Shown: positions 1 through 58,110, counted from the first letter of the stretch. The stretch is DNA of 64,000 nt from a virus (IMGVR_UViG_3300045988_122866:26982-90981), one strand, 5' to 3'. Translations and numbers: made by a program. The notes: generated from the letters alone by a model not told the origin.

Positions 1-354
1 GGAACGGTATGGGGAGAACTTCCAGAGCCGGGTGAAGAACCTCAAGTTTTAGTTGATAGATCCAGTTTTAATTGTGATCTAACTGAAGAAGAAATTAATA
101 TTTTAGCTATTTTAATGATGTGCGGTTGGACGCAAAGACAAGTCGCTTCAATTGAGAATACTCGAATGAAATATAGTGGCTCTGATTTTAAATTTACTTC
201 TTAGGCAAATCACCTATCAAAGTTATTGAATTTATTGGGTGAATGTCAAAGACAATCTCACCATATGTAGCGTTTGTATAAACGCAGACGTCTAAATAAC
301 AAAGGTGAGTATGAATCTAATTGGGATGTGTTTAAAAGTCGATATGATTACTAA
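1..354 (+). CDS. C-terminal part of a virion-module protein; the 5' end lies outside the window and the gene stops at TAA 352-354
   Basis: Frame 1 is open from position 1, with in-frame TAG codons near 211 and 286 read as sense. It sits at the head of the structural module. Function not recognisable. Confidence 0.45.
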
Positions 355-652
355 ATATAATTTTGATATTCCAATAGAGAGTATAAAAGTAAATTGTTTG
401 CGCTTAACCAATCAATTATGGAAATTAATTCCAATGCGCGAAAATAATGAAGATTGGCATAAATAGCTAGAAACTGTTATAAATGAAATTGTGGGGTTTA
501 GTGTGATTTTTAGCGCTGAACCCCTTTATTTATAGTTATTAAACAAACTTGAGGGATTGTAGAATCAAGATACTGATTTTAATTTTTATCGTAAGACTGT
601 ATTTGAAACGATTAGTCTTTTATAGGAGATAAATTATGGCATCAGGGTTTGA
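344..652 (+). CDS. Hypothetical small protein of about 102 aa, possibly a head-tail connector-type gene
   Basis: Frame 2 is open from ATG 344 to TGA 650-652 when TAG is read through (4 internal TAG). It overlaps both neighbours. No RBS was checked. Confidence 0.3.
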
Positions 653-1700
653 TTATAGCAGTAAGCAACCTTTTAGATTATAGCAAGGTCGCTTAGGAAT
701 TTATGATAAACCACCCTTTGAAGGTAGCCCTGTTGAAGGCGTTAATTATACAGCGGTTCGGCTCGGTCAGATGGGCGGAAACCGCCAACAAGAGCGTATG
801 ATTTTATCTAAGCGCAGAAGTTTAGATAGAGCAGTATGGAATTCATACCAAGCCGCGGAAATTATTAAATAGGATGCGGAATATAAAAAACCTATTAGAT
901 GTTTGATTAATCCTAATAAATTAAAATAGGATTATGATGACAAGATTTTGTCTGTTGGAAATGAATATTAGTTTAAATCGGGAGATATTTTTGAATGGTG
1001 TGGAACTAATACCTATTGGATTTGTTATCTTTAGGATTTGACTGAATTAGCTTATTTTAGAGGAGATATTAGAAAATGCTCTTATAAGATAAATTGGGTA
1101 GATGAGGGAGAGAAAAAATCTACTTATGCAGCAATTCGCGGTCCTGTAGAAACGAAAATTGATTATATTCAGAAACATGAAATTAGTATAGATAATCCTA
1201 ATTATTCATTAAATATTTTAATGCCAAAAAATAAAGATACATTAAGATATTTTAAACGTTATACTAAATTTTATTTAGATAGTTAGGATGAAGGAGATAA
1301 TTTAATTTGTTGGCGTGTTGAAGCTGTAGATTCTATAAGCATGCCTGGCATTTTAGAAGTTAATGCGACTGAATATTATACTAATGAGTAGGAAGATAAT
1401 TTAAACGATAAGACTGTTGGTTCTTTAATTACAGAACCAATTGATCCAAATCCTACGACAACTGATATTATAGGGGAAACATTTATTTTTCCAAAGAAAA
1501 CTTATACTTATTATTTTGATGGTAAAGCTGTTTTAGAATGGAAAATAAAGAATAATAAAAAGTTGCCGGTTTCTTTAAAAATTATTAAAGAAGCAAAAAA
1601 GCCGACAGTTGAAATAAGTTGGACTTCTGGATATAGCGGATAGTTCGATTTATGTTATGGAGACTATAAGAAAACGATTGTAGTTCAATCATTGTTTTAA
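636..1700 (+). CDS. Hypothetical structural protein of about 354 aa
   Basis: RBS AGGAG precedes ATG 636. A single frame runs to TAA 1698-1700 with about 14 in-frame TAG and no TAA/TGA. It contains the tool ORF 1038-1286. Confidence 0.6.
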
Positions 1701-1715
1701 GGAGTAAAAGGTGTT

Positions 1716-2297
1716 ATGAAAATTAATGGTGTAAATTTACCTAAATCAAGTTTTCTTTCTGTTGAAAAAGATTTAGAAATTATTGTAAAACATCTCTGTA
1801 AAAATGAGAGATTAAAGCGCTTATTGTATTATACAACAAAAGATGCTATTGATAAACCAGATTTAAATGATGAACAAATGATTCAATTATTTAATAAAAA
1901 TATTAAGTTAATTCCTAAACTTTATGTTGATGGAAGTGTATTAAATTATTTAATTATTAATTTTGATAATTTTACACAAAGTGGAAATCCTGAGTTTAGA
2001 GATAATATTGTTGAATTCGATATTATTTGTCATTTTGATCAATGGCATTTAAAAGATTATCAATTGCGCCCTTATCGTATCGCTGCGGAAATTGATAGCA
2101 TGATAGATAAAACGCATTTAACTGGTATTGGTAAGTTAGAATTTCTTGGTGCGAATCAAATTATTTTAACTGATGAATATGCTGGTTTGTGTCTTATGTA
2201 TCAGGCAGTTCATGGCGAGGAAGATAAAAAATTTATGCCGAATCCTAATGACGAGGAAAGATTTATAGAAGATTTTAAAAAAAGAATTGAAGAATAA
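1716..2297 (+). CDS. Hypothetical structural-module protein of 193 aa with no TAG codons
   Basis: Intact ORF in the supplied track with RBS GGAG. The stop overlaps the next start (TAATG). Confidence 0.6.
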   Translation: MKINGVNLPKSSFLSVEKDLEIIVKHLCKNERLKRLLYYTTKDAIDKPDLNDEQMIQLFNKNIKLIPKLYVDGSVLNYLIINFDNFTQSGNPEFRDNIVEFDIICHFDQWHLKDYQLRPYRIAAEIDSMIDKTHLTGIGKLEFLGANQIILTDEYAGLCLMYQAVHGEEDKKFMPNPNDEERFIEDFKKRIEE

Positions 2298-3022
2298 TGG
2301 ATATTAGACTTGGGTTAATGACAGGTATTGATTTACCAATACCTGAATTAGAAGTCACTATTCATTAGCCATCTATAAAAGAAATTTCTTTTATAGGTGA
2401 AAAAGATCTTTTCTTGGGGATTTAGTGTTTATGTATTGATAAAAACATAATAGAGAATTCGGGCGAAAGTCTTTTAAGAGAAACAAATAATTTTTAGATA
2501 TTTATGACAATGATGAAAGAAAAAGAGATGGCCGATAAAAAACAAGCATCTATGTAGGTTCTTACATTATTGTTTCCAAAGCAAAATGTTTTATTTACCC
2601 CGAGGTCAATTGTTTTACAAGGTGATCCACAAATAATGATTGACGAAAGCAATTTTAATATATTATAGGAATATATTAAAGAAATATTTTGTTTTAAATC
2701 TAATGCTTCGCAAGAAATGGGATTCAATCCTGGAAATGCGGCCGCGAAAAAGATAGCCGATAAATTAATGCGAGGTAGACAACGTGTCGCTGAATTAAAC
2801 GGCACGGCTAATGCTAGTATATTTAGTTAGTATCTTTCAATGCTTACTATAGGTCTTGATTCAATGTCTTTACAGGATTTAATGGATTTAACAATGTTCC
2901 AACTCTATGACCTTGTTGAAAGATATCAACTTTATATTAATTGGGATATTGATATCCGGTCTAGATTAGCGGGCGCGAAGCCTGATAATAAGCCGGATAA
3001 CTGGATGAAAAATATCCATTAA
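2297..3022 (+). CDS. Hypothetical structural-module protein of about 241 aa
   Basis: The ATG overlaps the upstream stop. The frame is open to TAA 3020-3022 with about 9 in-frame TAG. It contains tool ORF 2840-3022. Confidence 0.55.
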
Positions 3023-3046
3023 ATTTTTTAAGGAGGAAAAAAACCT

Positions 3047-4099
3047 ATGAAATTTGGTGTACGCGAAATTTGCGATGTCGTTTTAAAGGCAAAGGCTAAT
3101 CAAAAGATTGGTAATAAGCAATTTTATAAGAATGAGCCAGTTATTTATTTCGACACTTTAAAGACTTCCAGTATGGAAGGCGCTGCTACCACCGTATACG
3201 CACAAGGTGGTCGTGGTAATACTAACTTAGTCGCATGGGAAGGCGAGCGTACTGTTACCTTCACAATGGAAGATGCTCTTATTTCTCCTGAAGGTTTCAT
3301 GATTCTTTCCGGTGCTGGTCTTATTGAAGGTAATAAAGAGACAGGTTTAAAATCTGTTAAAATTAAGCAACATGTTACTCAAACTATTGATAAGGATACT
3401 GTTTCTAAAGTGGCTGATAATACTGCTATTGGCACTAAGGGATTAACTATTCCTCTTAGTTATAATCCTTATTTAAAAGATGGTACTGAGTATGAGAATG
3501 ATGCCACTGCAAAAGACGAAGACTATGTGTATGTTTTCTTTATGAAAGATGGTAATATTATTTCAGAGCCTTATATTGCTCATAAAGGAAGTCATACCAA
3601 AGATAGCTATAGTGTTACTATCGAGAATTCTTTTAAACGTAGCGAAAATGATGAAAATAAAAAATTCAATGATGGTAGCTATAAAGCTAATGATTTAGAA
3701 ACTGATTATAGTAAGTGCGATTCTGTAATGGTTGACTATTATACTGAGCGCGGTGAGGGTGCTAAGCAGATTGAAATTACCGCTGATAAGTTTGGTGGTA
3801 ATTATTATCTTGAGGCTTCTACTTTATTCCGTAATCAAGACGGTGTAGATATGCCTGCCGAATTTATCATTCCTAACTGCAAGATTCAGTCTAACTTTAA
3901 CTTTACAATGGCTTCTTCTGGTGATCCTTCCACCTTTACATTTACTATGGACGCATTCCCTGATTATACTCGTTTTGACCATAGTAAGAAGGTTTTGGCT
4001 GCTATCCAGATTATAGAAGAAAGTGAAGAAAGCGATAATGGTATTCGTATGTCTACTGCTGCAGATAAGGCCGTAGCATCAACTACCACTGGAGACTAA
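3047..4099 (+). CDS. Putative major tail protein of 350 aa with no TAG codons
   Basis: Strong RBS AAGGAGGA. The gene is completely free of TAG in a TAG-rich neighbourhood. It lies upstream of the chaperone-like gene and the tape measure, and is followed after a 60-aa ORF by a strong hairpin terminator. The call rests on position only. Confidence 0.4.
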   Translation: MKFGVREICDVVLKAKANQKIGNKQFYKNEPVIYFDTLKTSSMEGAATTVYAQGGRGNTNLVAWEGERTVTFTMEDALISPEGFMILSGAGLIEGNKETGLKSVKIKQHVTQTIDKDTVSKVADNTAIGTKGLTIPLSYNPYLKDGTEYENDATAKDEDYVYVFFMKDGNIISEPYIAHKGSHTKDSYSVTIENSFKRSENDENKKFNDGSYKANDLETDYSKCDSVMVDYYTERGEGAKQIEITADKFGGNYYLEASTLFRNQDGVDMPAEFIIPNCKIQSNFNFTMASSGDPSTFTFTMDAFPDYTRFDHSKKVLAAIQIIEESEESDNGIRMSTAADKAVASTTTGD

Positions 4100-4104
4100 T
4101 TAAT

Positions 4105-4287
4105 ATGGTTGTAAAAGGTCCAGTAAAATATACTCCACCAAAACAGCCTAAAAAAGAATCTACTAAAAAGCAGCCAAAAGTAGAAAAGGCTGTAGAGAAA
4201 GAACTTATCGAACCTATTGAGGAAGTAGTTCTTCAAGAGGAAGATGAGGTAAGTAAGATTTTATCTGAATTAGATAAAAAAGATTAA
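4105..4287 (+). CDS. Small Lys/Glu-rich protein of 60 aa
   Basis: Intact ORF immediately downstream of the putative major tail protein. Confidence 0.4.
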   Translation: MVVKGPVKYTPPKQPKKESTKKQPKVEKAVEKELIEPIEEVVLQEEDEVSKILSELDKKD

Positions 4288-4292
4288 TTAAT

Positions 4293-4328
4293 GGGAGAGA
4301 ATAGAAATATTCTCTCCCATTTTTTTGT
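4293..4328 (+). terminator. Rho-independent terminator
   Basis: Stem GGGAGAGAATA / TATTCTCTCCC with loop GAAA, followed by ATTTTTTTGTT. Confidence 0.7.
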
Positions 4329-4351
4329 TATGTGGAAAAGGAGGATTAAGT

Positions 4352-5404
4352 ATGAATCAAGAAAATTTAATAAATTCTTTATTAGATGATTTATTAAATG
4401 ATAGCACTAATGAAATTAGTCAAGAAGTTATTCAAGAAAGAAAAGCATTAATTTTATCAGATATGACTCGATTAAAATAGATCCGAAAAGAATTAGAAGA
4501 TACTAAACTTTTAATGAAAAAAAGTATAACTAAATCCTCTTAGTTATATAGTATTTTAGGAGGTAGTTAGTCTAGGGGATTATCTTTAATAGTCAATAAA
4601 TAGAATGATTATGGTAAAATTAGTCGATTAATTCTTGAAGCCTATCACTTAACTACAAATATATTATCAAATGTAGGACTAATAAGTAAAGTAAATTATG
4701 TAATTACTTATTAGACAGATAAAGATTTTTATAGACTTACTGATATTCCAATTGATGAAAATGCTATGACCTATGAAATTCGAGGAGAAGATAAGGGAAA
4801 AACTAGATTAGTATTAAGAATGAATGAAAGCTATATCAGAAGTAAGGTAAATGAAAAAAAGAATAATAATGATATAAATTGGGTTTCCGCGCATTATAAA
4901 TAGTTTATATAGCCTTTTAAAGATGCTGAAAAACGAAGCTCTAAACGTAGAAAATATAAATTTACAATGAACGCGGGCGTGGCGGCTGAAGCTTTTGAGC
5001 GTCATTGGGAGAATTTACATCATCAATTAGATAAACCTTCTATTAATTATAACTTAGAAGTATAGAATCCTATTGGATATGCCTGGGTTTTATATAAATA
5101 GAGTTCTGGTAATGCTCCTTATTATACCGGTCCTGATACTTTATACTCTTAGGTTAAAAATAGTAACGCTAGTATTATTAGTAATGCAGATACAGTTTTA
5201 AATACCATGGAAGCTGTTATCCAAATGGGGGAAGAAAATATTAGTGAAAATGAATTAAATAAAATTAAAGAATAGTATAAAAAAGCTTTTAAAGCAAAAG
5301 AAGGAAAATTAAAAATTCCTAAAAAAATTATGATGAATGTCGATAAAGAAGCTAAAAAATAGATTAATAATGTTTTAAAAGATTTTAAAATTAAGAATAA
5401 TTGA
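4352..5404 (+). CDS. Hypothetical tail-module protein of about 350 aa
   Basis: RBS AGGAGG precedes ATG 4352. The frame is open to TGA 5402-5404 with about 10 in-frame TAG and no TAA. Confidence 0.55.
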
Positions 5405-5407
5405 ATT

Positions 5408-5436
5408 TTGACTAAATAAAAAATTTTTTGTATAAT
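5408..5436 (+). promoter_or_regulatory. Near-consensus sigma-A/sigma-70 type promoter
   Basis: TTGACT, a 17-nt spacer, then TATAAT. It lies directly upstream of the chaperone-like gene and the tape measure. Confidence 0.55.
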
Positions 5437-5463
5437 ATAATAAAGAGTAAAAGGAGGCTAATT

Positions 5464-5997
5464 ATGGCTAAAATTTCATATAATAAATTAGGAATTACTA
5501 AGGATGAACTTAATAAAGTTCAAACTGTTGAATACAATGATTAGACTATTGAAGTAAAGCAATATCTTCCTATCGCGGAAAAGAGTGAATTGATTACTCG
5601 TGTATTGAATAATTCAGTGGATGAAAATACTGGATACTATAACCTTTTAAAATTAGATATGAATCTTGGTTTAGAGATTGTTTATGCTTATAGTAATATT
5701 TCATTTACTGAAAAGCAAAAAGAAGATCCAATGAAGCTTTATGATATGCTTAATGCTTCTAAAGTGCTTAATCTTATTATTGGTCTTGTGCCAGATGGAG
5801 AATTTTATTATTTAAATAAAACGACTCACGAGATGGCTAATAATATTGTGGCATATCGCAACTCTGCGATGGGTATTGTGGAAGCAATTTCCACGGATTA
5901 TAGTAATTTAGATTTGGATGCGACAGATATTCAAAAGAAGTTAAATGATCCAGATAATATGGCTTTATTGAAAGACGTACTTACTAAATTGGGCTAA
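5464..5997 (+). CDS. Putative tail assembly chaperone of about 177 aa
   Basis: RBS AAGGAGG. It sits immediately upstream of the tape measure. One in-frame TAG; stops at TAA. The call is positional only. Confidence 0.4.
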
Positions 5998-6042
5998 TTA
6001 AATTAGTTAATAATATTATTTTTTGAAAAATAATAGAGTGAT

Positions 6043-6083
6043 GGGGATAAGAGTATAATTGCTCTTATCCCCGTTTTATTTTT
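6043..6083 (+). terminator. Rho-independent terminator or attenuator between the chaperone gene and the tape measure
   Basis: Stem GGGGATAAGAG / CTCTTATCCCC followed by GTTTTATTTTT. Confidence 0.6.
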
Positions 6084-6119
6084 ATATAAAGATAAAACTT
6101 GGAGAGAAAGGAGATTTCT

Positions 6120-9100
6120 ATGGCTAAACAATTAAATAGTTATTAGGTTAATTTACAATTTACTGCTGATGCTAAATAGGCTCAATAGCAATTATAGAGT
6201 TTGTAGAGTCAGTTGGATGCTATAACTAAAGGGTCATTAAATGCTAGTATAGGCACTGGCATCTCAGAGGAAATTACCAAATCTACTATTGCGGTCTAGA
6301 ATTTAAAAAATAGTTTATAGGAAGCTACTAATGTTAATACTGGTAAATTAGATTTAAGTAAATTTAATGCTAGTTTAAAAGCTTCTGGTATGAGTTTAGA
6401 AAAATATAGAGATATTTTAAAAACTTTAGGGCCAGAAGGCAATAAAGCATTTTCAACTTTAGCTAGTTCTATAGCTTAGGCTGAAATGCCATTAAAGAGA
6501 TCAAATGCTTTAATCTCAGAACTTTGGACCACTTTAAAGAATACTGCTCGTTGGCAAATTTCTTCAAGTATTTTACATGGTTTTATTGGATCAGTTCAAT
6601 CTGCGTATTATTATGCTTAGGATTTGAATGAATCTTTAAATAATATTCGTATTGTTACGGGACAAAATACTGAGTAGATGGCTAAATTTGCTAAATAGGC
6701 AAATGCTACTGCTAAAGCATTAAGTACTACTACTACAAAATATACTGATGCTGCTTTGATTTATTATCAATAGGGTTTATCTGATGAAGAAGTAAAAGAA
6801 CGTACTGATATTACAGTAAAAATGGCTAATGTAGCTCGTGAAAGTGCTGAAACGGTTTCAGATCAAATGACCGCGGTTTGGAATAATTTCTATAATGGAA
6901 GTTAGTCATTAGAGCATTATGCCGATGCGATGGTACGTCTAGGTGCTGATACTGCTTCTAGCGCTGATGAAATTGCTGGTGGTCTTGAAAAATTCGCAGC
7001 TGTTGCTAATACAATTGGTTTAAGCTTTGATAATGCGGCTGCTGCCTTAGCTACTATTACTGCCACTACTCGTCAAAGTGAAGATGTCGTAGGTACGGCT
7101 TTAAAAACTATCTTTGCTCGTATTCAAGGTTTAAAACTTGGTGAAACTTTAGAAGATGGCACTACATTAAATCAATACTCATAGGCTCTTGACAAAGTTG
7201 GAATTAATATTAAAGATTCTAACGGTGAATTAAAAGATATGGATAATATTATCGAAGAGATGGGTAATAAATGGTAGAGTATTGATAAAGATTAGCAAGT
7301 GGCTTTAGCACAATAGGTAGCGGGTGTCCGTCAATATACTCAGTTAATTGCTTTGATGGATCATTTTGATTATTATAAAGAAAATCTTGCTAGGGCATAG
7401 AGCGCTGATGGTTCTCTACAAGAACAAGCAGATATTTATGCGGAGTCTTGGGAAGCAGCCAGCAAGCGTGTTAAAGCAGCGATGGAAACTATATATTCTT
7501 CATTATTAAGTGATGAATTTTTTATTGATTTAGCTGATGGAGTAGGTAGCTTTCTTGAAATTTTAAATAGTGTAATAAAAAGTCTTGGTGGAATGAAGGG
7601 TTTACTTTTAGGAATTACTTCTATCGTTTTAACTAAAATGTAGCCACAAATTACGAAAGGTCTTAGTAATATTAAATATAATATTGACTAGATGACTGGT
7701 AAAGAAACTTAGAACGTTGCTAATACAAAAAAGACCGCAAATTAGATGTTAATAAATTCTGCGGATGTAAACTCTGTTTATGGGAAAAATGCTAATAAAG
7801 CTTATCAAGAATAGGCAAATCTTTAGAATGAGTATATTAGAATAGCTGATAAATTAACAGAAGTACAACAAAAAGAAGCAGCATCATATTTAGATATTTA
7901 GAAAAATTTAATTAAGAATATTGAACTTAAATCTCAAGAATTAGAAATAAGTGAAAAAGAAGCTTATAAAACTACAAATAGAGCTAAAGGAGATATTTAT
8001 TCTGGAGATTACACTAAAAATAGACTAACTTCTTAGCAAAGATCAGGTATTGATTTATTAATGAATGATTTGGCTTAGTAGAGTAAAGCTTATGCTGAAG
8101 TAGAAAGTTACCAATATAATTTAGGAACTTAGGGTGAAACAACGGTAAAAGACCTTGAAATATTAAGAAAAAAAATTAATGAATGTAGTATGTCTGCGGA
8201 AAAGTTTGGGCTTGCTTATGGGAAAGAAGGAGCTAAAGCATTTTTAGAATTTGAAAATGCTTTAAAAAATAATAATATTGACAAAGTAGATTAGTCATTA
8301 GAAAAATTAAATAACTTAATGACTTAGAGTGAACCAGTATATAGAGATACTAAAAATATTATTTTAGATTTTGTTACTGCTTTAGGAGCTACCGAAGATC
8401 AATATAATGATTTAAGTAAGGTTTTAGATGATATTGTTAGTAAAAATCAAAAAGTTGGAGAAACTGAATAGGATTTATCTAATAAACATGTTATTTTAAA
8501 GAATTTTACTAAACAAGTAGAAGAAGTATTTAAAGAACTATCAGTGCAAACAATGTCTGCTTCTCAATCATTTGTTGCTTTTGCTGGAGCTTTATCTTCT
8601 GTTGGTATGTTAGTATCATAGATTTAGGGTATTATAGAAACTTTTAATGATGATACAGTAGACACAAAAGATAAAATTATCAGTATCATAACTTCTTTAG
8701 GATTTATGATTCCTATGCTATCTTCTGTGATTAATAGCTTAAAAGATTCTCGTTTCTTTTTAGGTTCTTTAGGAGCTTAGATGGGAGTAGCTGCTAACGG
8801 GGCAGGATTGTTAAGTAAGTCATTGGGAGAGGTTAGTATAGCAGGAACTTAGACGGCTATTTCATTAGGATCAGTTTTAACTGGACTTTCTGGATTATTA
8901 GCAGCTATTGTAATAGTAGGAACTGTTATTCTTGCTATAAAAGGTGTTATTGATTATGTAAATTAGGCTTCAATTGCTTTAGAAGACGCTACCAAAAACG
9001 CAGAAAAAGCTAGTGATGCTTTCAATGAAGTAAAAACATCTTTTGATTCATTAAAAAGTGATATTGAAGATTACTCTTCTATGAAAGATTCCCTGGATAC

Positions 9101-12100
9101 TTTAACAGAAGGTACAAAAGAATGGAATGAAGCTTTACAAAAAAATAATGAACAAGTTTCTTAGATGCTTAAAAATTATCCTGAATTAGTTAAATATTTT
9201 GATAAAAAATCTAACGGATAGTATTATTTTACTGATACTGAAGCTGTTGAAAAAATTTATGACAATAAAGTAAAAAATGCTTAGAATGCTGTTAATATGG
9301 CAAATGTAGCTAAAGCTAATGCTAATTATAATAATGAGAGAATTGCTTCTTTAAGAGATGCTAGTTCTTTTGATACTTATAATAGTTCTGATTTTATGAA
9401 AAAAATTGGAAATAGCACAATAGCTGGTTCGGGTATGGCTGCTATTTTAATGGGGATATTGGGCGGTAGCGCTGCTGGAATAGGAGCTGGTCCAATTGGA
9501 GCTTTAGCTGGTGGATTAGTAGGATTAACTACTGCAATTATAGATAATCAAAAAGCGGCAGAAAAAAGTCAGTAGGCTATGGACCTTTTACAAGAAGCTT
9601 ATAAAGAATCTGGCACTTTAGTTTTTTCTTCTCAAGAAGAATTTACAAAAGCTCTTAAAGGCGTTAAAAATGATACTATAGAAGCATTATGGAAAAATGT
9701 TGATACTATTTAGGATTAGATCATAGCTTTAGATAATAATTCTACGTAGCTAAAGAATTTATTAGAAATAGCTTCTAGCGGATATAATGAAAATAATGAA
9801 GATTATAATAAATTAAATGATAAAGAAAAAGCTCTTGCTGACGCTGTTATTGCTGAAAGAGCATCAAAAGATATTACTAATTAGACTCAAGATTATGTAA
9901 ATGCTCGTTCTACTGGGGCAATGCTATTATCGGGAAATAAGTAGCAACAAAAATAGTATTTACAAGCAGTTTATGGAGCTGATAGTGAAAATTATCAAGT
10001 TAAACAAGGTTTGTTTGGAAAGTATACTATTTAGAAAAGAGACTCTAATGGGACTTGGGCTGATTATAAATCTGGAAATGCTAATGAATTAGGAGCAGAT
10101 TATGCTACTTATCTTTTAAATCAATTCACATCTGAAGACTCTGACAAAATTGATAAATTAACTCAAGTTAGGGATCAAATTAAATCTAAAGATAGCAAAG
10201 AAGATTTAAGTGAAAAAATTCTTTAGTTACAAAAAGATATTATAGATGGTGTTGGGGTATCTTTAGCTGGTTTTGATGAAGATGTTGTTGAAAATCTTAA
10301 AAATAATTTAGGTTAGATCCCTGATGAGTATAAAAAGTAGATAGAAGCAGCTATAGAAGATTATGAAAAGAATTCTTCTGATTATGCAATACAACGATTT
10401 GCTGAAAAAGCTGAAGCTGCTAAGGGTAATGCAGAAGGTGTTGGAGGGGTTTTAACATCTTTAAATAATGGTGATGATTTATCAACAGAACAAATTGCTT
10501 TTTTAGATACACTTAAATAGAAATATACTGAATTAAATGATATTAAAGATTAGGGTAGCCATGAATATTTAGCTTTATTAAGAGAAATTCAGGAACAAGA
10601 AGAAACTAATTATCTATAGGCTTTAGAAGATTCTAGAAATACTTTATTTAATCAAGCATCTGAATTATCAAAAGAAATAAAAAACAAAGAAAGCACTTTG
10701 AATGATCCTACTTTAGGTAAAGAAAAAAAGACTGAATTAGAAATTGAACTATAGGCAAAAACAGATAAATTTAATGAGGTAATGGATAAAATCCAAAATA
10801 CTGATTATTCAATTCAAGTTGCGATAGATGCTGATTTAAAGTCCGATGTTGATTAGGCTTTTGGATTAGCTGATGAATTTGAAAAATTATAGTCTTATGT
10901 GAGTGATGGTTTAACAATTAGCGTAGAAAAAGCACAGTAGATTATTGCTGATGGATATGGAGCGATACTCACAAATGCTGAAGAGACTGCGAATGGTTAG
11001 ATTAAATTAAATCAATAGGCAAGAGATTCTTTTATTGATGATAAACAGGCAGAATTGAATGCTGATAAAGATGCTAAAATTAAATAGTTAGAACTTGAGC
11101 GTCAAATGCTTGTTACTAAATAGCAAGCAACTGAAAAAGCTATTGAAATTTTATAGGGTGGATTAGAAGCAACTACTGCCACTGCTAAAGCAGAAGCTTT
11201 AGTTAATGCTGGTTTAGAATCTTAGAAAGCAGACCAAGCTGTATAGACTGAAGAAATAAAATCAAATGCTGCTGATGCCGGTAATGAAGAAATAGCTTAG
11301 GATACTGAAAATTTAGTTAATGATTTAGGTTTAATGTATTCAGATAATGCTAAAAATCTTGGTAATTCATTTGATGATGCTACAACAAATGCTGAAACAT
11401 CAGCATCAGCGCAAGTTTCAGCTTGGAACTAGGCTCAAAGAGCTGTTGTTGAATACGGTAAAAAAGTAAGAGAAGCTCCAAAAACCACCGGAGATATTTC
11501 TTATAATGAAATTAAATTTACGGGGTCTGGTAAGAAAAGTAAAACAACTGAAAGCACTCCTACTAGCAGTAATTATACTTATTCTGAATCTACTATTGGA
11601 GATACAGTTGATTCAATACTTCGTGAAGCCGGGAAGCATGAAAGTGGTACAGCATTTTTAGATGAGGCTATTGAAAAGGCTATCGCACAACAATAGTAGA
11701 AGCTTGCCGCAGTAAATGCTCAGATTGGTAGTATTGATGCAGGAATTGCTGCTTTAAAAAGTACTGATGTTTATTTAGATAGATTACAAAAGAATTTAGG
11801 AAAAACTTCTAGTGAAGTTAAAAAATTAGCGGAACGTTACCACGAGATAACTCGTGAAATTCAATATCAAGAAAAGCTTTTAGATAAGTTATCTAAAACT
11901 AAAGATAGAGTTTATGGCAAAACTAGAATTGATAATATCAATTAGGAAATTGAAGCTAATAAAAAATTAGTTGACTTACAAACCCAACTTTATGATTTAG
12001 TATTAGCTAATGTTCTTGTAGATTAGCAAGAAGTTCAAAAACAATTCGGTGGATAGGCAATTTTTAATAAAGAAACATTAGAAATTGATAATTATACTGC

Positions 12101-14606
12101 TTTATATAATAAAGCTACCACAGATAAACAAAGAGAAGCTTTAGAGCAATATGAAGAAACTTTAGATAAATTAAAAGAACAAGAAGCAACATTAATTGAT
12201 TTAAAGAACACAATTCAAGAATTACATTACGAAAAATTAACTTATGAAGTTGAAGTAAAAATTAAATTAGACGAAAATGATACTAAGAAATTAGAATATT
12301 ATTTTGATAAATTAAGTGATAATATTTATAAAGCTGTTGAAGCTCTTGGATATTTACAAGGTCAATTTGATCCAGTAATTAGCCAATTAGGAACTTATGA
12401 AAATTTCTATGATTAGTTAAACAATGCTTATTCTAATGGAGAAATTTCTCAAGAAAATTATATTGAAGGCTTACAAGATGTATATGATAATACATTAGAT
12501 AATTTAAATGCTTTGTAGGATTTAGATAAAGAAATGCTTGAATATTATGGTAATACTATAGATTTAGCAAATGATGAATTATCTAAATATACAGATCATA
12601 TGGAGCATTTGACTAGTGTATTGGATCATTATCGTTCTATTATTACTTTGTTAGGTAAAGACAAAGATTATGATAAAGTTTTATCAGTTTTAAATGGAAC
12701 TGCTTAGACTAAGAGAAATAATTTTGATGCTTCTAAACAATGGTATGAAAGTCTGAAGCGTGAACGTGATGCAGCGGCCGCAGCTTTAGCCAGTTCAACC
12801 GATGAGGCTGAGCGTGAAGTGCTTCAAAAGAATTATGATGCTATATTAGCCGCATTCGATGAAGCGGAAGAGGATATGCTTTCTAAAGCAGAAGAATATG
12901 GTGAAGCATTAAAAGAAATTCTTACTACAAAGATGGAACAAGCTGCGGATGAAATGAATAAGCAATTGAGCACTACTAAAGTAAGTATTAATGGTAATAA
13001 CTTTAATATTTCCGGTTGGGATGCTTTAAATGATGCTTTGGATAGAATGTCTTCTTATCAAGATGAATATTTAACAAAAACTAATTAGATTTATGAAATG
13101 AATAAACTACTTAACAATGTTAATTAGGCTATTGATAAGACAAATAATCAAGCAGCTAAAAATAGATACCAGCAATTTACTAAAGAAATTGAATAGTTAA
13201 GAGATAAAGATAAATTAAGTCAATTAGAATTAGAAATTGCTTAGGCTAAATATAAAGTGCTTGAAGCGCAAATCGCGTTAGAAGAAGCTCAAAACGCAAA
13301 ATCCACAGTTAGATTACAACGTGATAATGAGGGCAATTTTGGTTATGTGTATACCGCAGACCAAGAGAAAGTAAATGACGCGCAATAGGCTTTAGCAGAC
13401 GCGGAAAATGACTTATATAACATTCGTCTTGATGCGACAAATAAATATGGTCAACAAAAACTTCAATATGAGAAAGAGTTAGCTGAAAAGCTCGCGGAAC
13501 TTGATTAGAAAGCCGCGGAAGATGCTGTTTACCGTGAGACTACATATCAACAAGAACGTGCTTTAGTAATTCAACAATATACTGATTTAATTACTACTGC
13601 TGGAAACCTTTATGCGAAAGCGCAAGAAGAGGATAGCAGAGTCGTTCAAGATGCTTGGGTAAATTCTTTTGATATTATTAAAGATAATAGTAATAGTTGG
13701 AAAGATACTATTACTGAAAATACTAATATTATCAATGATACATTTAAAGAATGGCAAGATAGCATGGATGAAATCACTAAAATTGTTGGTGATGATTTAA
13801 AAGATACTCAATAGAAAGTTAAAGATGTTACTGATGAAAGTAATAAACTTTATCAAGAGGTATCTAATAGAGTTATTCCTGCTCTTGAAAACGAGTTAAG
13901 TTCTGTCCGTAGTGCTACTGAAGCTTGGGCACAACATCGTCAGCAATTACTTGATACTATTAGAGCTTATGAAGAGCTTTTGAGCGCTATTCAAGCAACA
14001 TTGCGCGCTTAGAGCGGATTTGGTAGCGATAGTGGTGGAGACACTGACTGGGCGGCCATGATGGGCACTGTGGCTTATGGTTCCGCGCAATATAATCAAT
14101 ATAAAAGAAATCGTGAAGAAAAAATTGCTAATGGTGGTAGTATCAATGAAGATACTACGGCTCGAGTTGATGCATATTATAAATTGCTAAGTGAAGGAAA
14201 AATTTCTGGTAAACTTCCTAATGGTAAATATAGTTTTACTTAGCTTACTGATTAGGAATGGAAAGATTTAGTCGGATTTAGAAGTGGTGGTTATACTGGC
14301 ACTTGGAATGATGATGGAAAATTAGCGTTCTTACATTAGAAAGAATTAGTTCTTAATTCTGATGATACAGAAAATATGTTAGCTTCTATCCAATTAGTTA
14401 GATAGATCGCAAAACAATTAGACTTCAATAGTCAACAAATCTCTACTCTTTCTTCTTCTGGATTTACTGTTAGTTCTCAAGATGGAACATTAGAATAGAA
14501 TGTTAGAATTGAAGCTAGTTTCCCGAACGCTACTAATAGATACGAAATTCAAGAAGCATTTAATACATTAGTTAATGTAGCTTCTCAGTATGCCAATAGA
14601 AAATAA
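6120..14606 (+). CDS. Tail tape measure protein of 2828 codons
   Basis: A single frame (coordinate mod 3 = 0) runs from ATG 6120 to TAA 14604-14606. It contains on the order of 100 in-frame TAG and no TAA or TGA. It includes a TP901-family core-like segment (…ADEIAGGLEKFAAVANTIGLSFDNAAAALATITATTRQSEDVVGTALKTIFARIQG…), Gly-zipper transmembrane segments near 8560-9560 and long coiled-coil-like sequence. Tool ORFs 6930, 9297, 12819 and 14058 are all in this frame. Confidence 0.9.
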
Positions 14607-14610
14607 AATT

Positions 14611-14649
14611 AAGGGTGAAGTCTTATAGGCTTCACCCTTTTTCTTTTTG
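14611..14649 (+). terminator. Rho-independent terminator after the tape measure
   Basis: Stem AAGGGTGAAG / CTTCACCCTT followed by TTTTCTTTTT. Confidence 0.7.
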
Positions 14650-14721
14650 GGTAATTATATTGAATAAAACTAATTAATTTTTTAGAAAATTATAGAGTAA
14701 TGAGTAAAAGGAGGGATTATT

Positions 14722-17700
14722 TTGGCTGATAACGCACTAAATATTCAAGAAAGTTTATGTCAAGCAATGAGTATTATTGCTAATTCAAGTGTTGATAAAG
14801 TTAAATTTGATAGTACCATTGAATGTACTATTATTGATGCCATTGACAAACTTATTGGTAAGTATAAGGTTAAAAATGAATCTTATGCTGAATTTTATGC
14901 TTATTCCCAAATAACCACTTATAACAAAGGCGATAAAGTATATGTATAGATCCCAAAAGGAGACTATAATAGCACTAAATTTATTGTCGGTAAAAAGACA
15001 GATAAAAATGAAGATAAACCATATAATTTTGTCAATCCTTTTAATACTTTTATTGATTTAACTGGCAATTTTTTTATTGCCAAAGACAATAATAAAGAAG
15101 TTTGGAGCATCTTAGCCAATGGTAATGAAGAGGAAATTGAGATTACTCCAAATGGCGGAATTACCTTTACTGATGAGCAATAGGGATTTACGCGGTTGGG
15201 GTTGCGTGCCGATTTCCGCGCCTGGCTTGAAACGCTCGGTGTAGTAAGTGGTAATTATGGATTAAAATTAAATATATATGGTATTAGAGATGATACTGCG
15301 GACAATATTAAAAAAATAGAAAATAGTATTAAAAATAATGGAGAAATCCCTTTAATTGCATCTATTGATTTAGATACTAATGATATGTATGGCAATCCTT
15401 ATAATTTTGAAGGATATTATTCTCAAGAAATTGTTATTGATACTAGTGCAGTAGCTAAAATATATAATATAAAAATATTTTTATATCAAAAAGGTAATTT
15501 TAAAGATAGTAATAATAATTTAATTAGTTATGCCAATGATTTCAATATGTCAATTCCGCCTAATAATATCTTTGTAAAAGATATATATATGGGACTAGGT
15601 ATTTCTGCGGATGAAATAGAAAATGAATATGTAAGATTATATTCATTGGATGGAAGTACTTATGTAATTGACGATAAGGGTTAGATTGATTCTAAAACTA
15701 TTAAATTGAAATGGGTTCATTTTGATGAAGATGGCAATAGAACTCAAATAACTGAACATAAAAAAGATGATGCTTTTGAAGTTCGTTGGTATATGTATGA
15801 ATTTGGAGCACCGTCCGCGGACGAATATTCTGGTGTCTATTGGACTGCGATTGAAGATAATAAAAATAATTTTTATTATTAGCTAAAACCGCGTTCTAAT
15901 AAAAATCAAGAATAGGTTAAAGTAATTATTTTATATAATGGAAAAGTTTATAGAAGTAATATAATTACTTTTAATAATGAAAAACAAGTTCCTAATGATG
16001 CGACTATTGATAGTTTAAATGCTTTGTCTATCCACTGTGAAGATTAGACTAATGGTAATTATTTGATTTATAATTAGGCTAATTATTTAATGAATAGATC
16101 AGATGGAAAGATTAGTCGTAAATTAACTTTACATTTTGATTCTAAGACTTATGCTATTAATAATGGTATAATTGGTAAAAATTAGAATGGAGAAAGTAAA
16201 TTAGTTGAAGCTTAGAGAGTAATTTGGCAAATTCCTATTAAAAATACTATGCTTAATTTTGGTATTAAAGATGATGGAACCGATGCCACTTATAAAGAAA
16301 TTATTATTGATTTAACTAATGAAAACGTCAATGTTTCTCCTGGAGAATTTTCTTTAAATTATACTATTAATACTTTTTATAGTAGCAATAAATCTAATAA
16401 TACTGTAATTGCTAAAGTAGAAAAGGATGGTATTGTTTATACTGCTATTAAAGATTTTACTTTTGGATAGGCAGGAACTAATGGTACTGATTGTACTTTG
16501 GTAATTGATATGGTAGCTCATGAAAATTTAAATAATAAAGTATTTACTGCTATAAAAAGTGGGGTAAGAGATAATTATACTTTTAGAGCTTAGTTATATG
16601 ATAATGAAGGTAAAGAAATTACTGATTTTAAAAATTGTAACTGGACTTGGAGTTTTATGTCTGGATCAACGGTTAATAATGTTGATTTATAGAATACTAA
16701 TAATTAGAATTGCGTGTTAAGAGTTAATACTACAAATTCTATAATGAATAATTTAATTATTTTATAGGTAAAGTTATCTGGTTGGGGAGATTACGATTTA
16801 ACTGCTTATTATCCAGTTCCTATTACAACTTTAGATAATGCTTATATAAATGGCCCAACAGAGGTAATTTATTTGAGTAATGGCGAACCTACATTTTCTA
16901 AAGAGCCTTATAAATTATTTATAAATGGTGAAGTAGATGAAACTGCGACTTGGAGTATTTATCCTACTGGGTCTACAGATAAATTTATTGGATAGATTAA
17001 ATATAATGATAAGAAAAAAGAATATAGATTAAGTCCTATGAATTTTTATGTTGACGGGGTAAGTACTTATGGAGTTCAAGGAAAATAGGGAAGCAATGTA
17101 ATTTGGAGCCAACCTATTTTAGTCATATAGAATAAATATCCATCAGCTATGGTAAATAAATGGGATGGATAGTTAAGTATAGACGATAGTAATAATTTTA
17201 TTGGGGTTGCTTAGATCGCAGCTGGTAAAAAAGAAAATAATAATACATTTACTGGCGTTTTAATGGGATCTTTTGGTGATAGTAATGCTGATAGTAGTCT
17301 TAGCAAAAACACTGGTGTTTATGGATATTATCAAGGCAAATAGGTTTATGCTTTAAAAGATGATGGAACCGCTACATTTGGTAAATCTGGGAATGGGCGA
17401 ATTACAATTAATGGAAGTGCCAGTTAGATAAAATCTGAAGGATATGATAGCGGTAATGGTCTTTTAATTGATTTAAAAGAAAGTAAAATAGATGGTAAAA
17501 GTAATAGTTATAGTGCTTTTTTATTAAATAAATCTAGTCCATATTTAACAATTAAAGACCCTGTTAGTAATACTACTTTAATGAATGTAGGAGATAATGG
17601 TTATTATTTAAAGTCTAAAAATTATACTACAGATGGTACTACCGGAATGTATATAAATTTAAATGATGGTTCTATCACTGCCAATACTGGTACATTTAAA

Positions 17701-18153
17701 GGCGACATTATAATTAATTATACTGGTAGTACAGGCGACGGATGGGTTTATGGTAACAAAAGTTTAAGTTATATTTTAAATTAGATTGGAAAAGCGGCTA
17801 AAGAAGCTGGTGATTTAGCAGAAAGTTCTATTCAATGGACTAAAGATTTGGCACAAGCATAGGATGATATTAAATATGCTTTAAATGGAATTTCAAGTAC
17901 TGTTAGTATGTTGGATAAATTTTTTGAAATTGGTACTTCTATTGACGCCGAAGGGTACGTACATTATGGACAACGTCCATCTTTTACAAGTCCTCTTGGC
18001 GGTTCTGTTGCAGTGGGTTCTGGTGTACAGATTACAGGAGATAGAATTATTATAGGAGATAATCGAAGTTCAGTAAACTTTCAAAGTGCTACAATATATA
18101 TAACTGGAAGTACAACATTAGAAGAATATATTAGACAAATCGCTGGCGTTTAA
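14722..18153 (+). CDS. Large tail protein in the distal-tail-protein (Dit) position, about 1143 aa
   Basis: TTG start after RBS AAAGGAGGG. A single frame runs to TAA 18151-18153 with only TAG interruptions. It joins tool ORFs 14722, 15196, 16249, 17581 and 17908. Confidence 0.6.
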
Positions 18154-18178
18154 ATATGATAAAAGGAGAAAAAGGAAA

Positions 18179-18358
18179 ATGAATGAAAGAGATATTAATT
18201 TCTTAAAAGTTTTATATAATACTCTTTCTTTAGTGACAACTAAAGGAGAGGATACTATTCTTATGGGAGAATGCTTAAAACAATTAAGAAATTTTACGGA
18301 TAGATTGTCAACAAATCTTCAAGAGGAGAAGAATAACGAAAATAATTAGGAGGGATAA
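18179..18358 (+). CDS. Small protein of 59 aa
   Basis: RBS AAAGGAG precedes ATG 18179. One in-frame TAG; stops at TAA 18356-18358. Confidence 0.35.
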
Positions 18359-18359
18359 A

Positions 18360-21239
18360 ATGGTTAATAAATTATATCCACCTATTATATCTGGAACTTT
18401 ACCAGCATTTGTTGGATAGGAAATTACTATTCCATTTCAAATGAATCGTGCAGTTAGTATGGTAGAAGTTTCAGGATTGTGTTATATAATTAAAACAGTA
18501 TCAAGCAATGTTGTAATTGCTTAGGGAACAACCGCGGATTTTACTCCAAGCAAAGTTCGCGGTTGCTTGGAACAAGGGTCTATTACTTTCAATATAAACC
18601 TTAAATCAATTACTAATAATGGAAAACCTATCCAGTATAGATTAAATCCAGGATAGTCTTATAAAATTCAATTAGCATATATTAATACTAATGGAGTAGT
18701 CGGATACTATTCTACAGTTGGTATTGCTAAATGTACGACTAAGCCCGCAGTTTATATAAAAGGTTTTGAAGATAATTTAGTAGGAATAAATAAAACAAAT
18801 TTTATTGGAGTATATGGCCAAAAAGAAAAAAATGATGATATTACTGAAAAAGTTTATTCATATAGATTTAAAGTATATGATGAAAATGGTAATATTTTTG
18901 CTGATAGCGGAGAACAATTACATAATTCAATCAATGATACAGAATTAAATGAAAGTTATGATAGCTTTGAATTAAATAAAGAATTACAAAAAAATAAAAA
19001 TTATTTTATTCAATATTCTATAACTACTATCAATAATTATGAAGCAGAAAGTGTTCGTTATCAAATTATTAATAGAGAAACTATTAATCCAGAATTACAA
19101 GCAACTCTTTCTGCGGTTATGGATGAAAATAATGGGTATGTAAAAATTAATTTAAATGGAATCCGTGATAAAAAGACAGGATTAGAAATTCCCACGACAG
19201 GAGCTTTTGCTTTATTGAGAGCCAGTAGCGAAGATGATTTTAATACTTGGAATACAATATTAAAGTTTAAATTAGTTGGTGAAACTCCTTCAAGAGAATT
19301 GTATAAAGATTTTACTGTTGAGCATGGATTTAGTTATCAATATGCGGTGTAGCAATATAGCGATGAAACCGCAGTCCGCAGTAATAAAATTTTCTCTAAT
19401 ACAATATACAGTATTTTTGAAGATAGTTTTTTATATAGTAATGGACAGTTATTAAAAATAAGATTTAATCCAAAAGTAAGTAGTTTTAAAATTAATACTC
19501 TTGAAAGTAAAACTGATACTATTGGAAGTCAATATCCTTATATTTTCAGAAATGGAAATACTTATTATCACGAATTTCCTATAAGTGGTTTAATTTCTCA
19601 CCTTATGGATGAAGATCATTTGTTTATAGATAAATTGGGCGATGATGAAATTAAAGATTTTACATCAACTGATTTGACTAACTATAATATTAATATAGAG
19701 CGTCAATTTAAAACTAAGGCTTTAGAATTTTTAACTGATGGAGAACCTAAGTTATTTAAGTCTCCAACCGAAGGAAACTTTATTGTGCGTTTGTTAAATG
19801 TAAGTTTAAGTCCAGAAGATAAATTAGGTCGTATGCTTCATACATTTAGCGGAACCGCCTATGAAATTGATAAAGTTAGTTTTGATAATCTCACTACTTA
19901 TGGATTTATTGATGCAGATCCGCCTGAAAGTGAAATTCTTAAATGGGATAGTATTTCTTTTGATGGATGGTATAAAATTAATGGGTATATTGATGACGTA
20001 AATACCTATATTGATAACTTAAAAGATGAAAATTTAACTTAGGCAGAAATTAATAAATTACAAGCAAATAAACAAACTTGTTTAGATAATTTATTACAAA
20101 CACTAAGTTTTTATCCTATGTTTGAATTACTTTATAATGGAGACCATTATAGCTTATAGACTAAAGATATCTTGGCTAATTCTCCTGCAATAACTATTCG
20201 ATTTGAAGGTTTTGCGCCGGGAGATAAATTTAATGTTGATGGAGAAGAAATTGTTATTGGTATTACGGGAGCTTATTTAATAGATCATGTAGCTCCTATT
20301 CATAGTGTAAAAATAATTGAATTATCCGATGTAGGATTACAACAAGGAACTATTGTATATTCTTATTATGGTAAACAAGCAAGTAAATTTGATACCATTA
20401 GCGATATTCAAGTTGCTGATTTACCTTTAGAGCAATATTATGGTACTGAAGGTAATATTTTAAATCTTTATAATGATAATTTCAAATATAAAATCACAAA
20501 AATTTATTTCTTGCGTTTTACGAAGCGCGAAGTATAGAAACTATATACTAATAATAGAGTTAATTTTTATATAGCTCCTGATAGGGCATTAGAAGATAAT
20601 AATTATACCATGGAGATTAAGCGTGAAGATTTTGATCCAACTTTAATCTATCATGTGTATGTGGTTAAAGAAAATGAAGAAAGAGATTATTATATTGATG
20701 GTTATACTAAAAAGGAAATTTATGATTCAGGTATTTTAGTAAATGAGAAAAACTGGGCCTGTAATATTAGAATAAATGAAGATAATAAATAGATTATTGG
20801 TATAGACCATAAAAATGAATATCAAATAAAAGATTTGACTGATATTACTTCTATTGAAATTGATCCTGGCGTTTTATGTGAATTGTCAGTACAACGTCAA
20901 GAAATAGTTTATTCTTTTGAAAATGATAATCAAACTACTTATAGAATTTTTAATGGTCAGACTTATACTACAACAACTATTTATCAATTAAAGCAAAATT
21001 GGTTAAGAGCTAAAAAAACTTTAAAAGATTTTAAAGAATTAGAACAAGATAAAAGTAATCCTGACTTCTCTAATGATGATCCATTCTATAATGTAAATCA
21101 AAATAATATTTAGGATTGTATAAAAAAATACAATAGAAAAGTAGCAGAATTACAAAAGATTATAGACGAAACTTATACTTTATTTATTGATACTTTAAGA
21201 AAGGCGGTAGAGGATTATGAAGACTCAAAGACAATATGA
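18360..21239 (+). CDS. Baseplate or tail-associated protein in the Tal/hub position, about 959 aa
   Basis: Frame 0 runs from ATG 18360 to TGA 21237-21239 through TAG only. It joins tool ORFs 19119, 19605, 20172, 20610 and 20835. Confidence 0.6.
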
Positions 21240-50018: not shown

Positions 50019-50077
50019 ACTAAATATAGTAGTTCTTTTAGAATATTCTACTATATTTAGGTTTTGTTAGTAAATAA

Positions 50078-54659: not shown

Positions 54660-54684
54660 TTATATTTATATAATATCATATTAT

Positions 54685-55576: not shown

Positions 55577-55579
55577 TTA

Positions 55580-57256: not shown

Positions 57257-57259
57257 ATT

Positions 57260-58087: not shown

Positions 58088-58110
58088 AATCTACTCCATA
58101 AATAAAAATA

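Follow-up and report, generated by a model that had tools for sequence, protein, structure and literature searches.

A 2,828-residue tape measure gene with TAG read as glutamine, and the tail module around it, in a viral contig with a predicted tail of about 400-450 nm

Results

The tape measure gene is a single intact reading frame with 88 TAG codons

The DNA analyzed here is a 64,000-nucleotide stretch from a virus (IMGVR_UViG_3300045988_122866:26982-90981; hereafter the window, with positions counted from its first letter), and our subject is the tail tape measure gene at 6120-14606 on its plus strand. The gene lies in a tail module, with a tube gene upstream and tail protein genes downstream, an order also seen in Enterococcus phage VRE9_4 and in SPbeta, and terminator-like hairpins stand on both sides of it (Table 1). 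We found that 6120-14606 is one intact tape measure gene in which TAG is read as glutamine (Gln). Its frame contains 88 TAG codons, no TGA, and a sole TAA, the terminal stop at 14604-14606. An internal TAA or TGA that would split the region was looked for and none was found, which, with the colinearity of homologues as single open reading frames (ORFs), bears out the claim of an earlier note on this DNA that the region is a single 2828-residue gene. The other two frames of the same interval hold 121 and 407 TAA plus TGA codons; from base composition, about 189 would be expected per 2,828 codons (P(none) ~1e-85). The gene starts with an ATG at 6120, preceded by AGGAG at 6109-6113, and we take the length of 2,828 residues as correct because homologues align from residue 1. 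When TAG is treated as a sense codon, the plus strand from 311 to ~40.7 kb becomes a tight run of long genes and ORF coverage rises.

Full-length homologues are single proteins of ~2,600-2,700 residues that align end to end with this one (for example, query residues 1-2827 with subject residues 1-2661), and the region is therefore not two or more genes. The contrary view, in which 6120-14606 comprises short standard-code ORFs or a decayed pseudogene and the 8.5-kb ORF is an artefact of ignoring TAG, draws on the standard-code reading (table 11), which leaves nothing but ORFs below 100 residues, and on a window with neither a tRNA gene nor, consequently, a suppressor tRNA. It is at odds with the absence of TAA and TGA from 2,828 codons when the other frames are full of them, with colinear single-ORF homologues that include standard-code ones of 2,785-3,343 residues, with CAA/CAG swaps at 84 of the 88 TAG sites, and with the same recoding having been described in related phages that possess tRNA-Sup-CTA (PMC10607447). 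We consider this view effectively refuted.

Table 1. Features of the window that bear on the tape measure gene and its tail module, in order of position
Feature	Position	Strand	Details
Tail tube (major tail) protein gene	3047-4099	+	350 residues, no TAG; phrog_2729, E 9e-54
Small ORF rich in lysine and glutamate	4105-4287	+	60 residues; between tube gene and hairpin; same place in related contigs L001, L063, and L064
Terminator-like hairpin after tube gene	4290-4331 (stem 4290-4321)	+	14-bp stem, T7 run; -21 kcal/mol, z -6.7
Variable gene	4352-5404	+	350 residues, 12 TAG (71% of Gln codons)
Sigma-70-type promoter	5408-5436	+	near-consensus TTGACT-17-TATAAT; best match in 1-19000
YomO-like gene, putative tail assembly chaperone	5464-5997	+	177 residues; phrog_30570
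Terminator-like hairpin before tape measure gene	6040-6085 (stem 6040-6075)	+	16-bp stem, T-rich tail; -25.4 kcal/mol, z -7.4
Tail tape measure protein gene	6120-14606	+	2,828 residues, 88 TAG (Gln), TAA stop
Conserved core domain, residues 164-492	6609-7595	+	TIGR01760, PF10145; column identity 0.6-0.76
Hypervariable central "ruler", ~residues 475-2040	7541-12240	+	10-20% protein identity to homologues
Region with membrane-span-like hydrophobic segments	8673-9542	+	Kyte-Doolittle scan
Conserved C-terminal part, ~residues 2041-2828	12241-14603	+	87-97% nucleotide identity, ~20 relatives; 0.24-0.59 protein identity, distant homologues
Terminator-like hairpin after tape measure stop	14611-14650 (stem 14611-14639)	+	13-bp stem, T5CT5; -19.5 kcal/mol, z -6.2
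First distal tail gene	14767-18153	+	1,128 residues, 23 TAG; same length in L001; no family match
Tail protein gene	21217-23523		phrog_1887
Replication and nucleotide-metabolism genes	44639-63955	-	TAG-free or nearly so
dUTPase gene	45690-46208	-	
Guanylate kinase gene	50078-50683	-	
DNA polymerase III alpha gene	50646-54659	-	
Gene for a protein with a Phage_lysozyme2 ("tail lysozyme") domain	58151-58990	-	TAG-free; among replication genes
DnaB-like helicase gene	62753-63955	-	

TAG corresponds to glutamine at the residue and the codon level

Two independent tests, one on residues and one on codons, indicate that TAG is read as Gln. In BLASTP alignments with 120 database homologues, the residue opposite a TAG of the window was most often Gln (22.6%), followed by glutamate and lysine, a profile almost equal to that opposite the CAA and CAG codons of the window (Gln 27.3%, again followed by glutamate and lysine). 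Among 50-odd relatives from IMG/VR, the commonest codon partners of a window TAG were TAG itself (14.3%) and CAA (13.4%), and at 84 of the 88 sites at least one relative has CAA or CAG. Near-identical relatives display direct swaps such as ACT-TAG-CTT, ACT-CAG-CTT, and ACT-CAA-CTT. Standard-code gene callers shred the tape measure gene and most of the late genes, so the phage will be mis-annotated unless TAG is taken as Gln.

Recoding varies among the relatives. Our length survey covered 59 IMG/VR loci coding for a protein related to the N-terminal core, 52 of them with a complete tape measure ORF; 44 of these ORFs are TAG-recoded (21-111 in-frame TAG), 7 use the standard code, and 1, in contig L053, reads TGA as tryptophan. 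Thus, this tail module is common to TAG-recoded, TGA-recoded, and standard-code phages. The L053 ORF (IMGVR_UViG_3300021255_000152, 9683-17845) has 26 in-frame TGA and no TAG; tryptophan stands opposite its TGA sites in 19% of cases in relatives, against a background of ~0.6%, and the ORFs of this contig reach full coverage only with TGA as sense. Within the window itself, most structural genes carry TAG, and the genes for DNA polymerase III alpha, the DnaB-like helicase, guanylate kinase, and dUTPase have none.

The product belongs to the TP901-1-type tape measure family

The protein matches Pfam PF10145 over residues 196-402 (E 1.3e-29; 103.9 bits against a cut-off of 33.2) and NCBIfam TIGR01760 (tape_meas_TP901) over residues 164-492 (E 1.4e-33; 116.4 bits against a cut-off of 28.8). 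Nine tape measure PHROGs also match, two of which have profiles ~2,650 positions long. A conserved core of the TP901-1 type, which the earlier note had suggested looking for, is thus present, and these profile matches assign the product of 6120-14606 to the TP901-1/PF10145-type tape measure proteins. Searching 5.8 billion proteins with residues 1-1527 returned 1,210 matches, of which the full-length ones cluster at 2,600-2,700 residues. Megablast of the gene against INPHARED phages gave no match, nor did a sequence search of the PDB with the protein. The lytic domain that the earlier note had thought worth searching for did not appear: neither a lytic nor any other enzymatic domain was detected in the protein by Pfam, NCBIfam, or PDB.

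A conserved core and C-terminal part enclose a replaced centre

A conservation profile, obtained from an 11-sequence alignment and from parsed BLASTP alignments of full-length homologues, divides the protein into three parts, with mean column identity of 0.47-0.76 over residues 1-500, 0.10-0.27 over residues 500-1900, and 0.24-0.59 over residues 1900-2828. Proline is scarce (15 of 2,828 residues, 0.5%), and alanine, leucine, lysine, glutamate, and Gln are abundant, a composition that fits a tape measure protein. The Kyte-Doolittle scan marks hydrophobic stretches at residues 852-874, 912-948, and 1105-1141. The protein comprises a conserved TP901-type N-terminal core (~residues 1-500), a proline-poor, fast-changing central ruler in which the hydrophobic stretches lie (~residues 475-2040), and a conserved C-terminal part, and by the established ruler mechanism it would set tail length.

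The contrast between ends and centre is sharper at the nucleotide level. Identity between the window and ~20 relatives is 75-86% in the initial 1.4 kb of the gene and 87-97% in its final 2.4 kb, and blastn found no counterpart of the central 4.7 kb (7541-12240) among 60 relatives. The junctions of this segment are abrupt, at gene nucleotides ~1420 and 6121 (5683 in one sub-group), and the segment that replaces it in the closest contig, L001, is 91 codons shorter. The centre looks like a cassette replacement of the ruler; it turns over completely, by cassette exchange or by very fast divergence, with total length kept in a narrow band. A band of 2,720-3,343 residues in spite of a replaced centre would be expected if selection acts on total length. 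The residues that this protein has in surplus of homologues of 2,600-2,700 residues are distributed as many small insertions and deletions scattered through the centre. Internal repeats were considered as the origin of the length and rejected, since no tandem repeat or self-similarity was found in the gene at the DNA or protein level.

The predicted tail is long but not exceptional

Tail length scales with tape measure length at about 0.15 nm per residue. Published cases lie close to this value: Bacillus phage Tsamsa has a 3,123-residue tape measure and a measured tail of 440 nm, or 0.141 nm per residue (PMC3903500), and Thermus phage P23-45 has a 5,002-residue tape measure and an 800 nm tail, or 0.160 nm per residue (bioRxiv 10.1101/2022.12.01.518664). 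If a ruler mechanism operates at 0.14-0.16 nm per residue, the tail of this phage is predicted to be ~400-450 nm. The earlier note had put the tail at about 400 nm and called the gene exceptionally long. The first estimate holds, and such a tail would, as that note said, be long compared with those of most characterized siphoviruses; the second does not, because 2,828 residues is below the clade median and longer cases, including TAG-recoded ones, have been published. In the 52 complete ORFs of relatives, length ranges from 2,720 to 3,343 residues with a median of 2,896, and 34 are longer than 2,828; three TAG-recoded tape measures of the phAss-1 group have 3,149, 3,150, and 3,209 residues (PMC10607447). 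The predicted tail is thus neither exceptional nor new. Separately, in the related contigs L027 and L054 the tape measure ORF extends for at least 3,795 residues without reaching a stop codon in the DNA retrieved, and some members of the clade may therefore have tails well above 500 nm.

The estimate presumes that the whole protein measures length. Conceivably only part of it does so, with the terminal domains or the hydrophobic segments being globular, cleaved, or directed to the membrane, and the tail would then be well below 400 nm. Such a division would suit a protein whose N-terminal 500 and C-terminal 800 residues are conserved like domains and whose centre varies freely, and it has counterparts in the 280 and 100 kDa bands as which the Tsamsa tape measure was seen (PMC3903500) and in the N-terminal RNA polymerase domain, not part of the ruler, of the P23-45 tape measure. 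However, whole-protein length tracks tail length in these same two phages (0.141 nm per residue for Tsamsa and 0.16 for P23-45), proline stays at 0.5% throughout the protein and no enzymatic domain was detected, and total length remains within 2,720-3,343 residues even though the central sequence is wholly replaced. We judge a partial ruler to be improbable.

The tape measure might instead set the length of a contractile tail. The siphovirus morphology is a prediction and several upstream genes have no assigned function, which leaves some room for a myovirus, but no sheath-like family matches within 6 kb upstream, YomV- and YomW-like genes precede the tube gene as they do in the siphovirus SPbeta, the published relatives are described as siphovirus-like (PMC10607447), and Tsamsa is a siphovirus (PMC3903500). 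A myovirus is, in our assessment, highly improbable.

Hairpins and a promoter recur at fixed places in the module

Three terminator-like hairpins punctuate the module (Table 1; z-scores were computed against shuffled sequences). They have the form of intrinsic (rho-independent) terminators, with G+C-rich stems in intergenic DNA on the coding strand. Two had been proposed in the earlier note, at 6043-6083 and 4293-4328; both are real and each is followed by a T-run, with stems slightly shifted from those positions. The third, at 14611-14639, and the promoter at 5408-5436 were absent from that note. We used the wider clade to examine conservation because the spacers of L001 are too similar to those of the window for an independent test. 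In 49 of 51 loci, a hairpin of -17 kcal/mol or lower with a T-run ends 30-59 nucleotides short of the tape measure start codon, and at least 12 unrelated stems occur among them; the same combination occurs in 2.5% of control 170-nucleotide windows. Most relatives also have a hairpin with a T-run 0-230 nucleotides after the tube gene, or after the small ORF that follows it, and here too the stems differ. Most sub-clades also have the hairpin that follows the tape measure stop codon; the sub-clade with 38% guanine plus cytosine does not.

The promoter lies 27 nucleotides before the YomO-like gene. It is the sole match of at least 11/12 on the plus strand of the structural module that is intergenic and has a gene shortly after it. 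A promoter of at least 11/12 precedes the orthologous gene by ~26-37 nucleotides in 52 of 60 loci, with the 17-nucleotide spacing in 59 of 60, against a background of 0.76% of control 110-nucleotide windows, and it is kept where the downstream protein has fallen to 30% identity. The conserved layout thus runs from the tube gene and its terminator through the variable gene to the promoter and the YomO-like gene, then to a second terminator, the tape measure gene, and a last terminator.

The hairpin before the tape measure gene ends 44 nucleotides short of the start codon. No promoter fits into that interval; therefore, the tape measure gene would be transcribed only by read-through or antitermination. 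The earlier note had suggested from the two hairpins that transcription is graded across the module. This idea gains from the conserved position of the flanking hairpins in diverged relatives, and it is incomplete in that it omits the conserved promoter: because 5408-5436 lies between two terminators, transcription would not just taper off from one gene to the next. In the mechanism that we propose, the strong terminator after the tube gene would provide a first level of grading, the near-consensus sigma-70 promoter would drive the YomO-like gene, and the hairpin before the tape measure gene would act as a leaky attenuator.

TAG is avoided in the tube and YomO-like genes

Codon choice might add a third level, with TAG lowering the yield of the tape measure. 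In the window, TAG accounts for 88 of the 209 Gln codons of the tape measure gene (42%), for none of 9 in the tube gene, and for 1 of 5 in the YomO-like gene. Across 16 representatives of sub-clades the shares are 32.7%, 6.0%, and 8.5%, respectively (Fisher p 3e-13 and 6e-8), p-values that are overstated because the representatives are not phylogenetically independent, although the direction is consistent. The tube gene shifts from CAA toward CAG. Because 42% of its Gln codons are TAG, the full-length tape measure needs 88 suppression events. The products that should be required in bulk, the tube and presumably the YomO-like protein, would thus come from genes that avoid TAG, and the tape measure, of which few copies per virion should be needed, from a gene full of TAG.

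The same elements could be explained without dosage control. In this alternative, the 5464-5997 unit would be an autonomous moron-like or early cassette, its terminator would insulate the TAG-rich tape measure gene before suppressor tRNA becomes available, and the other hairpins would stabilize the 3' ends of mRNAs. The classical moron likewise consists of a promoter, a single gene, and a terminator, and a host-consensus promoter inside a late module, one of only a few such sites in 64 kb, resembles that of an independently expressed insert; the gene is almost TAG-free, as early genes are, and has no homology to a known chaperone. Yet, unlike typical morons, the gene is a position-fixed core component of the tail module throughout the clade and in VRE9_4, the tube gene, which is certainly late, avoids TAG equally, and read-through into the tape measure gene would be needed in any case, since no promoter of this gene follows the hairpin. 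We regard the cassette explanation as possible, if on the unlikely side.

The neighboring genes tie the module to SPbeta

The genes upstream of the tape measure gene follow the order phrog_31155, 6123, 4051, 2729, and 30570, and the same families occur in the same order in VRE9_4. The copy of Pfam that we used on the window proteins was without the Yom families; in L001, L063, and L064, the orthologous neighbors match Pfam YomW, YomV_2nd, and YomU_Tube and, weakly, YomO. These matches in related contigs therefore link the module to siphovirus SPbeta.

The tube protein is 39% identical to the positionally equivalent virion structural protein of VRE9_4, and its L001 orthologue (77% identical) carries PF27173 (YomU_Tube). 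Its matches to the solved tail tube proteins 8k98 and 9jgh are weak (E 0.05), and an AlphaFold model of the protein alone had a predicted local distance difference test score (pLDDT) of 30.6, too low for fold comparison. Relative to the tube gene, the small ORF at 4105-4287 occupies the -1 frame, which is open from 4069; no slippery heptamer of the classical type was seen. A frameshifted extension of the tube protein through this ORF is neither supported nor excluded.

The variable gene at 4352-5404 matched nothing in PHROG, Pfam, or NCBIfam. With TAG making up 71% of its Gln codons, it exceeds all other larger genes of the window in this respect. Nearly its whole length (4369-5389) is without nucleotide similarity in L001, which has a 314-residue gene at this position and flanks of 91% identity to those of the window.

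A phrog_30570 gene occupies the same relative position in VRE9_4 as the YomO-like gene does here, and homologues of the 5464-5997 product match PF27287 (YomO) weakly; from its position, phrog_30570, and this weak profile match, we assign the product a putative role as a tail assembly chaperone. AlphaFold, given a 19-sequence alignment, returned a pLDDT of 41.5, again too low for fold comparison. The frame of the gene opens at 5416, past the stop of the variable gene at 5404, and no ORF overlaps its 3' end. A frameshift of the G/GT type between the two genes was considered and rejected because their frames do not overlap.

Beyond the tape measure gene come distal tail genes and a gene for a holin. 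The distal tail region also includes a giant ORF (28664-36409; 2,581 residues, 27 TAG), whose counterpart in VRE9_4 has 2,572 residues and the same relative position; the sole match to it, below threshold, is that of a BspA-type leucine-rich repeat close to the C-terminus.

The module resembles phAss-1, Enterococcus phages, and SPbeta

The phAss-1 phage of the human gut (proposed Phassvirus group; GenBank OQ749652; PMC10607447) likewise concentrates TAG-to-Gln recoding in virion genes, and its group likewise has one very long TAG-interrupted tape measure ORF (3,149-3,209 residues against 2,828 here). As here, it has a DNA polymerase III alpha gene and, among its wider relatives, Enterococcus phage EF1. 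Similarity of the two tape measures is confined to the N-terminal core (33% identity over residues 44-479 by tblastn; no megablast match). Contigs related to the window reach 190-199 kb, whereas phAss-1 measures 133-136 kb.

The cultured Enterococcus phages EF1, EF5, VRE9_1-4, and H1 (134-142 kb) have the same PHROG order, from 31155, 6123, 4051, 2729 (tube), and 30570 to a phrog_34405 tape measure, tail proteins, and a giant ORF of ~2,570 residues. Their tape measure has 2,673 residues, is ~25% identical in patches to the one described here, and is encoded in the standard genetic code. Unlike the window, they carry two additional genes after the phrog_30570 gene and ahead of the tape measure gene, and they have no consensus promoter in front of phrog_30570 (8/12).

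SPbeta YomI has a homologous tape measure core by tblastn. It differs in length (2,285 residues) and in its annotated lytic transglycosylase, which has no detected counterpart here. Stem-loops are annotated in the SPbeta GenBank record immediately on either side of yomI, and a further one between yomV and yomU. SPbeta also uses the standard code and has an inserted block of genes, including an integrase, between its tube and tape measure genes, and in direct pairwise comparison its tube and YomW-like proteins show marginal similarity to those of the window. A literature search on the tail dimensions of SPbeta and on the Yom proteins yielded nothing usable.

Tsamsa and P23-45 are characterized siphoviruses in which very long tape measures go with very long tails, so that they calibrate the present prediction, and both tape measures are longer than 2,828 residues. 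In P23-45 an RNA polymerase is fused to the tape measure; nothing comparable was found here. Lambda, with gpG/gpGT and gpH, likewise has a small gene immediately before its tape measure gene, an arrangement that should yield far more of the small gene's product than of the tape measure. A -1 frameshift makes the lambda chaperones, whereas here neither an overlapping -1 ORF nor a fusion is possible; the ratio of the YomO-like product to the tape measure would be set instead by the promoter-terminator pair and by codon choice.

Discussion

We conclude that 6120-14606 is, with high probability, a single gene for the tape measure of a large phage of the siphovirus type that has an SPbeta/phAss-like tail module, reads TAG as Gln, would build a tail of ~400-450 nm, and would grade expression across the module. 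Several observations weigh against parts of this reading, in addition to the P23-45 polymerase domain, the host-type promoter, and the nonindependent codon test discussed above. In L001, the closest contig, an in-frame TAA TAA (13958-13963) stands where the window has TAG GAA (14250-14255; residues 2711-2712), 117 codons before the end of the tape measure, and the frame beyond it is still conserved; because 18 other close relatives have sense codons at this site, we attribute it to a private mutation or an assembly error. ARAGORN finds no tRNA gene, and hence no suppressor tRNA, in the 64-kb window, nor does any Rfam family reach threshold there, so that the decoding agent is unseen in this DNA; phAss-1 has three suppressor tRNAs, and some recoded phages have none (PMC10607447). 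A literature search found no electron microscopy of the EF1/VRE9-type Enterococcus relatives. A canonical chaperone pair with a -1 frameshift (G/GT type) is not present next to the tape measure gene, which does not exclude tape measure identity because the feature is common but not universal. Finally, the putative chaperone showed no similarity to SPbeta YomO, YomJ, or YomK in pairwise BLASTP.

Taken jointly, these features suggest a more far-reaching model that we offer tentatively and think rather unlikely to hold as a whole. A dedicated promoter would over-produce the YomO-like protein; a leaky terminator, passing only a fraction of transcripts into the tape measure gene, together with 88 TAG codons, serving as a throttle and as a timer that awaits suppressor tRNA, would replace dosage control by frameshifting; and ruler cassettes would be swapped between phages that are otherwise ~91% identical. 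If so, a tape measure of ~310 kDa would be made at a few copies per virion and the TAG-free tube and chaperone-like products in bulk, and phage populations would come to differ in tail length through the exchange of ruler cassettes.

The phages to which this gene adds a further example are large, siphovirus-like, and associated with the gut; as a group they are very abundant and for the most part uncultured, and their tails are predicted to measure 400-500 nm. The gene leaves the understanding of tape measures unchanged, its length being normal for an already described group, and the earlier interpretation is partly supported, being right in kind (a tape measure, a long tail, terminators) and overstated in degree. 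More useful than the length are its by-products, namely the conserved layout of promoter and terminators, the avoidance of TAG in high-copy late genes, and the replaced centre of the ruler, which in combination could reveal the means by which recoded phages adjust the proportions of virion components.

Some further observations concern the origin of the contigs and signals elsewhere in the window. Assigning a host from genome bins was rejected because the bins conflict (Mollicutes, Bacteroides, Eubacterium, Oscillospiraceae, Bacilli), most likely through phage contigs having been binned with bacteria. Related contigs of 148-164 kb (L065, L067, and L071) lie inside metagenome-assembled genomes named Mollicutes, Eubacterium, and Bacilli, names that should not be taken for those of hosts. 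A strong terminator-like hairpin at 493-524 (12-bp stem, T-rich tail) falls within the coding frame of the ORF at 311-652. The few other intergenic near-consensus matches of the sigma-70 type are at 47312-47284 (-), 41533-41483 (-), and 56775-56803 (+), one of them 12/12, and two overlapping matches precede a response-regulator-like gene (40714-41430, -) at the switch of coding strand.

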